From assembly GCA_009779845.1 (NCBI GenBank), contig WRBE01000005.1:880-64879 (forward strand): 64,000 bases of DNA, in the 5' to 3' direction. A program made the position numbers and the translations under genes. How positions within the stretch are numbered: position 1 is the first letter of the stretch; every line of letters begins with the position of its first letter. A model generated the notes under the pieces. It was given only the letters and a program-made list of their open reading frames with translations, was not told the DNA's origin and ran no database searches. This DNA comes from Oscillospiraceae bacterium (lineage in GTDB: Bacteria > Bacillota > Clostridia > Oscillospirales > Oscillospiraceae). This document shows positions 778 through 1,680 of this stretch, one piece after another.

Positions 778-806
778 TTGACATTCAAGAATAAAGGGTG
801 TATTAT
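778..806 (+). promoter_or_regulatory. Sigma-A-type promoter candidate for the small-peptide cassette
   Basis: TTGACA (778-783), a 17-nt spacer, then TATTAT (801-806), about 115 nt upstream of the first peptide ATG. Pattern match only. Confidence 0.4.
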
Positions 807-922
807 ACCCTCAAAAGTAGATGCTTTGTCAAGTAATCTAGGAAGGGACACGTTGGGTTATTTAGCAGTAGCTTCTTCTTTGCAATTGTTTAAACAATAC
901 GTACTATATAGGAGGTGAAAAC

Positions 923-1024
923 ATGTTTAACGGTGGTCTCGGTTTGTGGCTTATAAATGGTATGACAATTCTGGCTAACATTAATGCGCTTTTGAACAGC
1001 GTTCTCGGTGGTACTCCTAGCTAA
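923..1024 (+). CDS. Small hydrophobic Gly/Asn-rich peptide A1 (33 aa), below the ORF-track size cutoff
   Basis: SD GGAGGTG lies 5 nt upstream of the ATG. Product: MFNGGLGLWLINGMTILANINALLNSVLGGTPS. A paralogue sits at 1352..1450 and differs mostly by synonymous codon changes. Confidence 0.65.
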   Translation: MFNGGLGLWLINGMTILANINALLNSVLGGTPS

Positions 1025-1097
1025 TTAGCACACTTTGCGTGAGTGTCCCATTCCCAAAGAGTAACCTTTTCGAAAAATGAAAGAAGGAGGATTATAT

Positions 1098-1187
1098 ATG
1101 TTAGGTTCTGGATTTTTCGCTGTTCTCGGCGGACTTTGGTCAGCTGCTATGACTGCGCTCATGGTGCTTGCGGCTGTATTTTCATAA
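1098..1187 (+). CDS. Small hydrophobic peptide B1 (29 aa)
   Basis: SD AAGGAGG lies 7 nt upstream of the ATG. Product: MLGSGFFAVLGGLWSAAMTALMVLAAVFS. The paralogue at 1520..1609 has the same length and start/stop context. Confidence 0.65.
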   Translation: MLGSGFFAVLGGLWSAAMTALMVLAAVFS

Positions 1188-1351
1188 GCTCTATAGTAAA
1201 ATGGCAATCTTAACAACGATGTACTTATGTTTGTAAAAATAGCTAGTGCTTTAGCACTCATGATAGAGGGGCACAATGAATTGCTTGGTATTAGCTTTTT
1301 TAATTTAAGAACTATCTATTTACGAATTACGAATGTAGGAGGTGGCAACAT

Positions 1352-1450
1352 ATGTTTAACGGTGGTCTTGGTTTGTGGCTCATGAACGGATTTTCAATCC
1401 TCGCTAACATCAATGCGTTTATTAACAGTGTAACTGGTCCTACTCGCTAG
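1352..1450 (+). CDS. Small hydrophobic Gly/Asn-rich peptide A2 (32 aa)
   Basis: SD GGAGGTGG lies upstream of the ATG. Product: MFNGGLGLWLMNGFSILANINAFINSVTGPTR. Over the first 27 codons versus A1 I count 9 synonymous codon differences and 5 conservative replacements. Confidence 0.65.
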   Translation: MFNGGLGLWLMNGFSILANINAFINSVTGPTR

Positions 1451-1519
1451 GCACCAAACTTGAGTGTCCCATCAAGTTAAAGTACATTATACAACATAAG
1501 AAAAGGAGGATTGTATACT

Positions 1520-1609
1520 ATGTTAGGTTCTGGATTTTTCGCTGTTGTCGGCGGAGTTTGGTCATCCTTTATGACTGCGCTTATGGTACTTGCAGCTGTA
1601 TTTTCATAA
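1520..1609 (+). CDS. Small hydrophobic peptide B2 (29 aa)
   Basis: SD AAGGAGG lies upstream of the ATG. Product: MLGSGFFAVVGGVWSSFMTALMVLAAVFS. Versus B1 there are 3 synonymous changes and 4 replacements (L>V, L>V, A>S, A>F). Confidence 0.65.
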   Translation: MLGSGFFAVVGGVWSSFMTALMVLAAVFS

Positions 1610-1643
1610 GTCTTATATTAAGAACGAACAATGTTTGATAAAG

Positions 1644-1680
1644 CGGCGACTTCCCTTTCGGAAAGTCGCCACTTTTGTGT
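1644..1680 (+). terminator. Rho-independent terminator closing the peptide cassette
   Basis: Stem GGCGACTT (1644-1651) pairs with AAGTCGCC (1663-1670) and is followed by ACTTTTGTGTTTTG. Confidence 0.6.

Follow-up and report, generated by a model that had tools for sequence, protein, structure and literature searches.

The window analysed here is a stretch of 64,000 nucleotides from an Oscillospiraceae bacterium (assembly GCA_009779845.1, contig WRBE01000005.1), and the subject of this account is a compact peptide cassette near its start, in which four mini-open reading frames (ORFs) follow one another on the plus strand in the order A1-B1-A2-B2. A reading of the sequence alone had proposed that these are two copies of a pair of short hydrophobic, glycine-rich peptide genes lying between a promoter and a terminator. 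The four mini-ORFs are present exactly as it described them, each with a GGAGG Shine-Dalgarno (SD) site at proper spacing. The features of the cassette, in window positions, are the following.

778..806, plus strand: sigma-A/sigma-70-type promoter of the peptide cassette, TTGACA-17 nt-TATTAT, matching the consensus at 11 of 12 positions
807..922, plus strand: 5' untranslated leader of about 115 nt, holding GGGACAC (845-851) and the SD of A1, GGAGG (911-915)
923..1024, plus strand: A1, ORF of 33 aa, MFNGGLGLWLINGMTILANINALLNSVLGGTPS; SD GGAGG at 911-915
1040..1051, plus strand: 12-nt block TGAGTGTCCCAT in the A1-B1 spacer, with an identical copy in the A2-B2 spacer at 1461-1472 (from alignment of the two units)
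1098..1187, plus strand: B1, 29 aa, MLGSGFFAVLGGLWSAAMTALMVLAAVFS; SD GGAGG at 1086-1090
1352..1450, plus strand: A2, 32 aa, MFNGGLGLWLMNGFSILANINAFINSVTGPTR; SD GGAGG at 1338-1342
1520..1609, plus strand: B2, 29 aa, MLGSGFFAVVGGVWSSFMTALMVLAAVFS; SD GGAGG at 1505-1509
1640..1684, plus strand: intrinsic terminator, stem AAAGCGGCGACTTCC / GGAAAGTCGCCACTTT followed by the T-rich tail CTTTTGTGTTTT (inverted repeat I2, 88% complementary; predicted fold)

The promoter-like site at 778-806 was the top match of a consensus scan of the region, in agreement with the role that the sequence-only reading had given it. The terminator proposed after B2 is corroborated by RNA folding, in which a GC-rich hairpin at about 1640-1675 with its T-rich tail closes the A1-B1-A2-B2 unit; a simple terminator scan did not list it. 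The distance from GGAGG to ATG is 7-10 nt for A1, B1, A2 and B2. The ORF listing places the starts of B1 and B2 further upstream (an ATG at 1077 and a TTG at 1511), but we take the true start of both genes to be that of MLGS because the position of the SD and all 27 homologues of B agree on it. Judged by these signals, the cassette is a self-contained transcription unit that would deliver two types of leaderless mini-protein at equal gene dosage.

The two A-B units had been regarded as diverged duplicates, and this view holds: the coding parts of A1 and A2 are 76% identical and those of B1 and B2 90%, as against only 41-59% for the flanks and spacers. The substitution counts given earlier proved exact, with 9 synonymous and 5 replacement codon differences between A1 and A2 in the first 27 codons, and 3 synonymous and 4 replacement differences between B1 and B2. 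The block TGAGTGTCCCAT is identical in both A-B spacers, which elsewhere are about 59% identical, and the GTGTCCC inside it is complementary to the GGGACAC of the leader. These GGGACAC/GTGTCCC heptamers are also present in the leaders of two related cassettes (loci L008 and L027, see below), and the block may serve as an operator or mark a site of processing. The idea that GGGACAC and GTGTCCC pair over a long range in the RNA was dropped: the pairing occurs in the minimum free energy fold of the window but is not thermodynamically supported (z = +0.86), and it was not reproduced in L008. Pairing of an anti-SD stretch (872-881) with the SD of B1 was likewise set aside and judged likely to be compositional. 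A search of window positions 1-6000 against Rfam returned no family and one sub-threshold snoRNA match only. A perfect 13-nt direct repeat, TTTGTAAAATGTT, stands at 506-518 and 658-670, 152 nt apart, within the AT-rich intergenic stretch of 650 nt before the cassette promoter.

Altogether, the analysis found 27 distinct genes for B in about 10 loci, together with about 20 for A. Orthologous loci were fetched with the adaptor protein encoded downstream of the cassette as anchor, and were then searched by tblastn and hidden Markov models (HMMs). All 27 B genes have exactly 29 codons and encode no charged residue; M1, W14 and S29 are invariant, and S4 and S15 nearly so. Their A partners are 24-40 aa long and form at least five subtypes (MFNGGLGLW.., MFGAG.G.W.., MFNQGLFATPLFW.., MWFVGGGPFAW.. 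and MF..PG.GGW..), which have in common only M1, a Gly-rich N-terminus and one Trp. The A1 product is called as an identical gene on 4 independent public contigs, with an A1 family HMM score of 51-62 bits, and A2 is itself a representative (P0054) in a library of 1.84 billion proteins, while B1 and B2 are missed by several gene callers. A degenerate B pattern of 90 nt matched the window twice, against 0.00 matches expected from 100 shuffles.

That the peptides are under selection, and not chance ORFs, had been argued from the substitutions between the two units, and the wider comparison bears this out. A-B cassettes occur in at least nine other loci, where frames, lengths and stops are kept despite saturated synonymous divergence. 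When the cassettes of L017 and L022, which are orthologous, are compared, all four genes align gap-free and are 72-87% identical, whereas the spacers are 31-65% identical and contain 6-85 gap columns. Codon-position entropy amounts to 0.99, 0.54 and 1.30 bits for positions 1, 2 and 3, that is, highest at the third and lowest at the second. The ratio of non-synonymous to synonymous divergence (dN/dS), a check that had been proposed for the homologues, is mostly 0.1-0.8 in pairwise comparison, with synonymous distances often near saturation. Because the coding parts are gap-free while the spacers decay, and because codon-position entropy and dN/dS agree, the coding signature of A and B is unambiguous and is that of real, selected genes. 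The opposite explanation, chance ORFs or a non-coding repeat, could appeal to the shortness of the ORFs and to the gene callers that pass over B1 and B2, but the comparative data refute it: among the 27 B and roughly 20 A genes, whose synonymous sites have diverged to saturation, start, stop, frame and length are kept, only the spacers contain indels, and the codon-position signature is a coding one. That A and B constitute a previously undescribed small-protein family is, on these comparisons, well supported.

The sequence-only reading had further treated A and B as partners. A-B or B-A adjacency is seen in all loci, arrays consist of one to five pairs, and the A and B counts are equal or nearly so at each locus, from 1:1 to 5:5 (2:2, 4:4 and 5:5 were seen). 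Distinct A subtypes also accompany distinct B subtypes, and this tracking together with the near-1:1 co-occurrence supports the proposal that the two form functional pairs. Descent of A and B from an ancient common gene was rejected, as profile-profile comparison shows no homology between them. Within the arrays, the copies A' and A'' of L008 are about 45% identical and their B partners are nearly identical. A search for frameshifts and stops in the loci of relatives, suggested as a means of refutation, found frames and stops kept, except that one L006 copy looks frameshifted: the third A-type copy of that locus (2374-2481, minus strand) diverges wholly after codon 22 (MFDNGLFATPQFWLNQAVLYAD / LDVPTLRCPPRGT) and is probably a frameshifted, decaying paralogue. 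Orphan B genes occur in L022 and L025, and from these together with the decaying A copy it follows that the arrays evolve by birth and death.

Cassettes of the same design recur in the related loci. In L008/L009 (metagenome-assembled genome (MAG) Lab288P1bin140; adaptor 64% identical) an A-B-A-B array lies upstream of a pump triad as in the window; its peptides share only about 40% (A) and 52% (B) of their residues with those of the window. L006 (adaptor 76% identical) carries, on the opposite strand, three B-A pairs that belong to a further subtype. An ATP-binding cassette (ABC) exporter lies just upstream of these pairs, the only ABC_membrane exporter seen; its alignment to peptidase-containing models begins at about position 150, so that the exporter is without a peptidase domain. 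Every cassette starts with a near-consensus TTGACA-17-(TG)TAnnAT promoter, matching at 10-11 of 12 consensus positions, and GGAGG sites are found in all of them. The leaders are about 110-130 nt long, a similar length being found in L008, L017, L022 and L027, and most cassettes end in a hairpin (a 20-bp stem in L017, a strong hairpin in L008). Such consensus promoters and GGAGG sites suggest that the cassettes are built for very strong expression. In six loci the cassettes are AT-rich islands, with a GC content at third codon positions (GC3) of 0.32-0.42 compared to 0.53-0.65 in the flanking genes.

Between promoter and terminator the cassettes contain only A, B and sometimes C ORFs. The latter is a third conserved mini-ORF with its own GGAGG, located after the second A-B pair in two diverged cassettes, those of L008 (5457-5516) and L027 (5133-5074, minus strand). 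Its product is a cationic amphipathic peptide of 19 aa, MFDFLRRFLLSIFDRIFSR or MIDFFRRLITAFFDRLFGR, with a net charge of +2 and a hydrophobic moment of about 0.4-0.5, which resembles the phenol-soluble modulins (PSMs). The C ORF is absent from the window cassette. Two repeats were noted beside cassettes of other loci. In L022, at about 1790-1850, the 14-nt sequence CAGCTTTGCTGCCT stands in about 5 tandem copies just upstream of the orphan B (1858-1947) that adjoins an AcrB-type pump. In L026, the region 12140-12560 (minus strand), upstream of the array of five pairs, contains a pair of direct repeats, each about 110 bp long; both include GTTAACATTTGTTAAC, which might bind a regulator and which the other cassettes do not show.

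The scans of sequence collections used one exact B pattern, and the distribution of the family is therefore a lower bound. This pattern was found in a single genome among 185,579 species representatives, namely Lab288P1bin140, an Oscillospiraceae MAG from the gut of the termite Labiotermes, and it matched ten JGI metagenome stretches. One of the samples, 3300010162, comes from Labiotermes labralis, a soil-feeding higher termite, and represents its P1 gut compartment; several other JGI/ENA samples share near-identical contigs with it. Within this lower bound, the family appears so far to be almost confined to termite-gut Oscillospiraceae. When an A1+A2 profile was run against the 1.84 billion representative proteins, the true matches were A2 itself and P0057 only; the other 64 matches, FG-GAP/VCBS-like repeat proteins that share a 'GVWLMNG' motif, were rejected as spurious. 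The contig of P0057, 1.2 kb long, amounts to one whole promoter-A-B-A-B-terminator cassette whose sequence recurs at its ends. The 1.07-kb promoter-A-B-A-B-terminator unit of L017 restarts at the end of its contig (1-135 versus 1071-1211), which reflects either tandem cassettes in the genome or a circularised assembly.

Searches elsewhere returned no further members. A relaxed B pattern gave 4 matches among the IMG/VR viral contigs, all translating with stops or into unrelated sequence, hence no phage copies, and tblastn against plasmid and phage collections gave no match. A concatenated A1+A2 query found nothing in a word-indexed protein database, and the 40-aa A peptide of L006 found only itself there, so that this database is uninformative for the family. 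For about 40 members, no family match was obtained in Pfam, NCBIfam, PHROG, PADLOC or PDB at permissive thresholds (E up to 10 for Pfam, NCBIfam and PDB).

The two peptide types differ in character. The grand average of hydropathy (GRAVY) of B is 1.4-1.9, its net charge 0 in every member and its hydrophobic moment 0.17-0.23. A has a GRAVY of 0.4-1.3, a net charge of -1 to +1 and a hydrophobic moment of 0.14-0.32. The moment of PSM-alpha3, taken as reference, is 0.44, and only peptide C, with 0.40-0.44 in this comparison, comes up to it. B thus looks, from its sequence, like a plain single transmembrane helix with a small/polar stripe G11-S15-T19 and an interfacial Trp; within the stripe, G11 is conserved in at least 70% and S15 in at least 90% of the members. 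In A, a small-residue stripe A18-A22-S26-G30 accompanies the Gly-rich N-terminus, and both peptides carry motifs of the GxxxG type for helix-helix contact, all of these motifs being read by eye. In the AlphaFold2 prediction, made from a two-sequence alignment, A1 is one helix (residues 4-27) with a mean predicted local distance difference test (pLDDT) score of 84.5. As read from the sequence, N12, T15, N19, A22 and S26 of A1 lie on one face of this helix, and positions 19 and 25 are polar in other subtypes. Overall, the A peptides of the window, 32-33 residues long, are predicted helices that begin Gly-rich, contain a Trp and bear Asn and Ser in a polar stripe.

Downstream of the cassette the window encodes the adaptor, MacB-type ATPase and FtsX permease that the sequence-only reading had named, all three now confirmed by family models.

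1945..3987, plus strand: YknX/MacA-like membrane-fusion (adaptor) protein, 680 aa; Pfam HlyD_3, HlyD_D23 and Biotin_lipoyl_2, TIGR01730 with 109.6 bits (cutoff 94.9)
3984..4652, plus strand: MacB-type ABC ATPase, 222 aa; ABC_tran 9e-35, best NCBIfam models MacB, DarD and LolD
4658..5833, plus strand: MacB/FtsX-type permease, 391 aa; MacB_PCD 3.5e-34, FtsX 2.6e-22

The three genes have the make-up of a MacB-type tripartite pump, with an adaptor, a separate ABC ATPase and a permease carrying both MacB_PCD and FtsX. The adaptor, whose orthologues are P0001-P0012, is a candidate component of an extractor or self-protection pump. Its residues from about 330 to 560 form a long Pro-rich low-complexity insert (PEPTPEPPPPPPPEP..., with PxMP repeats), of which the presence, not the sequence, is kept in the homologues P0002-P0012, and which might span the wall or S-layer. 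The triad is preceded by a weak promoter-like site of its own (1876-1905) and is separated from the cassette by the cassette terminator.

Whether A-B pairs recur beside HlyD/MacB/FtsX triads had been posed as a test of the family, and the answer is divided. They do so in 3 of 10 related triad loci, namely the window, L008 and L006. Cassettes also adjoin an AcrB-type pump with its adaptor (L022 and L025) or stand alone, and the other 7 of the 10 triads are without a cassette and lie next to polyamine-synthesis genes instead. From these cassette-less triads it follows that the triad is an older conserved pump, beside which the cassette is an accessory insertion in some lineages. The two pump families that adjoin cassettes are unrelated, and their common denominator is the membrane-fusion adaptor.

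The sequence-only reading had likened the peptides to class IIb bacteriocins, leaderless bacteriocins and PSMs without finding that they fit any of these, and with a net charge of 0 and a GRAVY of 1.4-1.9 in B, the lack of a leader and the lack of family-library matches, this assessment stands. Like the leaderless bacteriocins (enterocin L50/DD14, aureocin A70, garvicin KS), the cassettes encode tandem peptides with their own ribosome-binding sites and no modification enzymes, those bacteriocins being about 30-44 aa long. A and B themselves appear leaderless, as the conserved Met lies 7-10 nt after GGAGG and a total length of 29-40 aa leaves no room for a leader of 15-30 aa. ABC transporters often export leaderless bacteriocins or serve in self-protection, and the L006 cassette has the peptidase-less ABC exporter directly upstream. 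The leaderless bacteriocins, however, have a net charge of +3 to +7, a pI above 10 and a GRAVY of -0.14 to 0.7 (PMC6131525), unlike the uncharged, far more hydrophobic B and the nearly uncharged A, and the cassettes are without conserved accessory genes. None of the leaderless subgroups (aureocin A53-like, L50-like, A70/garvicin KS-like and LsbB-like) was matched when 40 members were compared with Pfam, NCBIfam and PDB at E up to 10. With the class IIb bacteriocins (lactococcin G, plantaricin EF/JK) the cassettes share two unrelated peptides side by side at 1:1, packing stripes of the small-xxx-small or GxxxG kind, an interfacial Trp and cognate pairs that diversify together. The class IIb peptides are cationic, and have double-glycine leaders of 15-30 aa, a C39-peptidase ABC transporter and an adjacent immunity gene, all of which are missing from the cassettes.

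The PSMs, exemplified by the psm-alpha operon and Pmt, similarly come from a stand-alone, strongly expressed operon of tandem tiny leaderless ORFs, with an exporter encoded elsewhere that doubles as self-protection, to which the cassettes may be likened; peptide C of L008 and L027 is PSM-like also in its charge and hydrophobic moment. PSMs are amphipathic surfactant helices, whereas B is uniformly hydrophobic with a moment of about 0.2, and the neighbouring pump is of the MacB/FtsX type and not of the ABC-2 type of Pmt (PmtD model, E = 0.19). The downstream triad does resemble the YknWXYZ and AS-48EFGH pumps, being composed of an adaptor that is YknX-like by Pfam, an ATPase and an FtsX/MacB permease. 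In those systems the peptides SDP and AS-48 are Sec-exported or circularised and have dedicated biosynthetic genes, while the link between pump and peptides here is positional only and absent in 7 of 10 related triads. In size (19-50 aa), in forming a single hydrophobic helix and in being often missed by annotation, the peptides are like the type I toxins Ibs, Fst and TxpA and the small proteins AcrZ and KdpF; Ibs and KdpF are nearly uncharged. They differ from these toxins and regulators in the absence of an antisense RNA signature, the strong translation signals, the paired and amplified genes, and the lack of homology. No mark of a ribosomally synthesised and post-translationally modified peptide (RiPP) such as a daptide or sactipeptide was found, there being no leader, no conserved Cys and no maturase in the flanks.

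The hypothesis we favour, with a probability of about 0.4, is that A and B are leaderless, uncharged two-peptide membrane-active peptides that are exported, with the pumps serving as extractors or for self-protection. A and B would be made in large amounts, enter the membrane spontaneously and without a signal sequence, and pack helix against helix, forming a hetero-oligomer that disturbs membranes or makes them permeable. Adaptor-dependent pumps would then pick them from the outer leaflet of the producer's membrane and thereby provide both release and self-protection, the pump being a MacB/YknXYZ-type triad in the window and, elsewhere, an AcrB-type pump or an ABC half-transporter. Pumps of the MacB and AcrB types are thought to take their substrates from the outer leaflet or extracytoplasmic side. 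The extractor-pump model draws on the shared dependence on an adaptor and on a peptide precedent among MacB-type pumps of Gram-positive bacteria, as in Bacillus YknXYZ guards the cell against the SDP toxin that it makes itself, and AS-48EFGH includes a MacB-type permease (PMC5985334; PMC4887032). Because the pairs amplify and diverge and are AT-rich and patchy in occurrence, they would represent a competitive accessory trait of termite-gut Oscillospiraceae.

Several observations weigh against export as a membrane-active toxin. The peptides are neither cationic nor amphipathic, while the characterised leaderless bacteriocins are all of net charge +3 to +7 with a pI above 10 (PMC6131525). No immunity gene, regulator or maturase was identified in any cassette flank, no dedicated transporter is consistently linked to the cassettes, and those of L021, L023, L026/L028 and L027 have unrelated neighbours and no adjacent pump. 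The adjacency of triad and cassette could moreover be a historical accident, because the triad has its own promoter-like site, a terminator lies between the two and triads are usually cassette-less. A dN/dS below 1 and a rigid B of 29 residues would, finally, fit a resident structural membrane subunit equally well.

Such a resident integral-membrane pair is the main rival, although we regard it as unlikely. A and B would here build an abundant hetero-oligomer or tune the membrane or envelope, and would not be toxins; their copies would serve dosage, as in the gvpA (gas-vesicle) and pucBA (light-harvesting) arrays. This accords with B as a textbook single transmembrane helix whose length of 29 and termini are fixed in 27 of 27 genes, with the 1:1 gene dosage and purifying selection, with the lack of an immunity gene and, in many cassettes, of a nearby transporter, and with S-layer-homology envelope proteins as neighbours in three loci. 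A resident complex is harder to reconcile with a patchy presence among close relatives (the B signature in 1 of 185,579 species genomes), a foreign-like AT-rich composition, the fast divergence of paralogues within arrays seen in L008 and the existence of one decaying copy, and subunits of this kind are not known from any complex of non-phototrophic Clostridia. An improbable alternative is that the peptides serve adaptor-dependent efflux pumps, either as accessory small subunits or as modulators, comparable to AcrZ with AcrB or YknW with YknXYZ. The cassettes do adjoin two unrelated pumps of this kind, MacB type and AcrB type, and small membrane proteins have been raised as possible pump modulators in a review of MacB (PMC5985334). 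The cassette, though, appears to be transcribed separately from its own strong promoter to its own terminator, multi-copy arrays exceed any pump stoichiometry, several cassettes stand without a nearby pump and 7 of 10 triads without a cassette, and the peptides show no similarity to the AcrZ or YknW families.

Self-directed toxin modules, either type I toxin-antitoxin-like or with A as toxin and B as antidote, and acting as selfish or stress-response elements, would also be small, hydrophobic, multi-copy, AT-rich and patchy, and weak minus-strand terminator-like hairpins do occur upstream of A1 and A2. Consensus scans of the window, L008, L017 and L027 nevertheless revealed no consistently placed antisense promoter or terminator, and the top promoter match was in each case a sense-strand one. 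Type I toxins are typically under tight repression, quite contrary to the strong GGAGG sites, free of occlusion, and the consensus promoters of the cassettes, and same-strand peptide pairs in 1:1 arrays correspond to no known type I architecture. We rate this explanation about as improbable as that of pump subunits. The least probable of the functional alternatives is that A and B are precursors, either of pheromones (hydrophobic peptide signals) or of a RiPP with its enzymes encoded at another site. Processing or modification might be marked by the Ser that invariably ends B and by the conserved M-h-x-[GS]-G motifs at the N-terminus, and the daptides offer a precedent for several helical, hydrophobic peptides that share an invariant residue at the C-terminus. 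But no Rgg/RRNPP-type regulator, peptidase or modifying enzyme is present in any flank, the sole radical SAM neighbour (L028) is of the DNA-repair type TIGR03916, leader peptide and Cys are both lacking, and transmembrane-like peptides of 29-40 residues are unlike known pheromones.

A and B may, with substantial probability, be something categorically different from the known kinds. One may speculate, tentatively and with more doubt than for export as such, that they are the two subunits of a charge-free heteromeric mini-protein assembly outside the existing bacteriocin, PSM, toxin-antitoxin and small-subunit categories: either a pore-forming toxin class without electrostatic targeting, which pumps of the MacB or resistance-nodulation-division (RND) type would have to pull mechanically out of the producer's membrane, or an abundant structural membrane lattice peculiar to termite-gut Oscillospiraceae. 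If they are exported toxins, unmodified ribosomal two-peptide antimicrobials need not be cationic, and the adaptor-dependent MacB pumps of single-membrane bacteria, which are still poorly understood, would gain a natural substrate that allows a direct test of outer-leaflet extraction. If they are resident subunits, they would make up a new abundant small-protein complex. In either case the family is a clean and well-populated example of conserved genes at or below annotation cutoffs (29 aa, uncalled in several assemblies), and it originates from an ecologically important, uncultured gut lineage, with peptides short enough for synthesis.

Two other features of the window were noted outside the cassette and triad. 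Directly after the FtsX permease, at 6079-7123, lies an AT-rich IS3-type element with an OrfA-like ORF of 69 aa and with HTH_21 (6285-6791) and the rve integrase core (6677-7123) in different frames, so its transposase is either frameshifted or decayed. Further along, at 25425-35762 on the minus strand, an ORF of 3445 aa combines several GH10 xylanase domains, CBM9, FIVAR and Listeria-Bacteroides repeats with a C-terminal SLH domain, and by this domain content is a predicted giant cell-surface xylanase, typical of fibre-degrading gut Clostridia.

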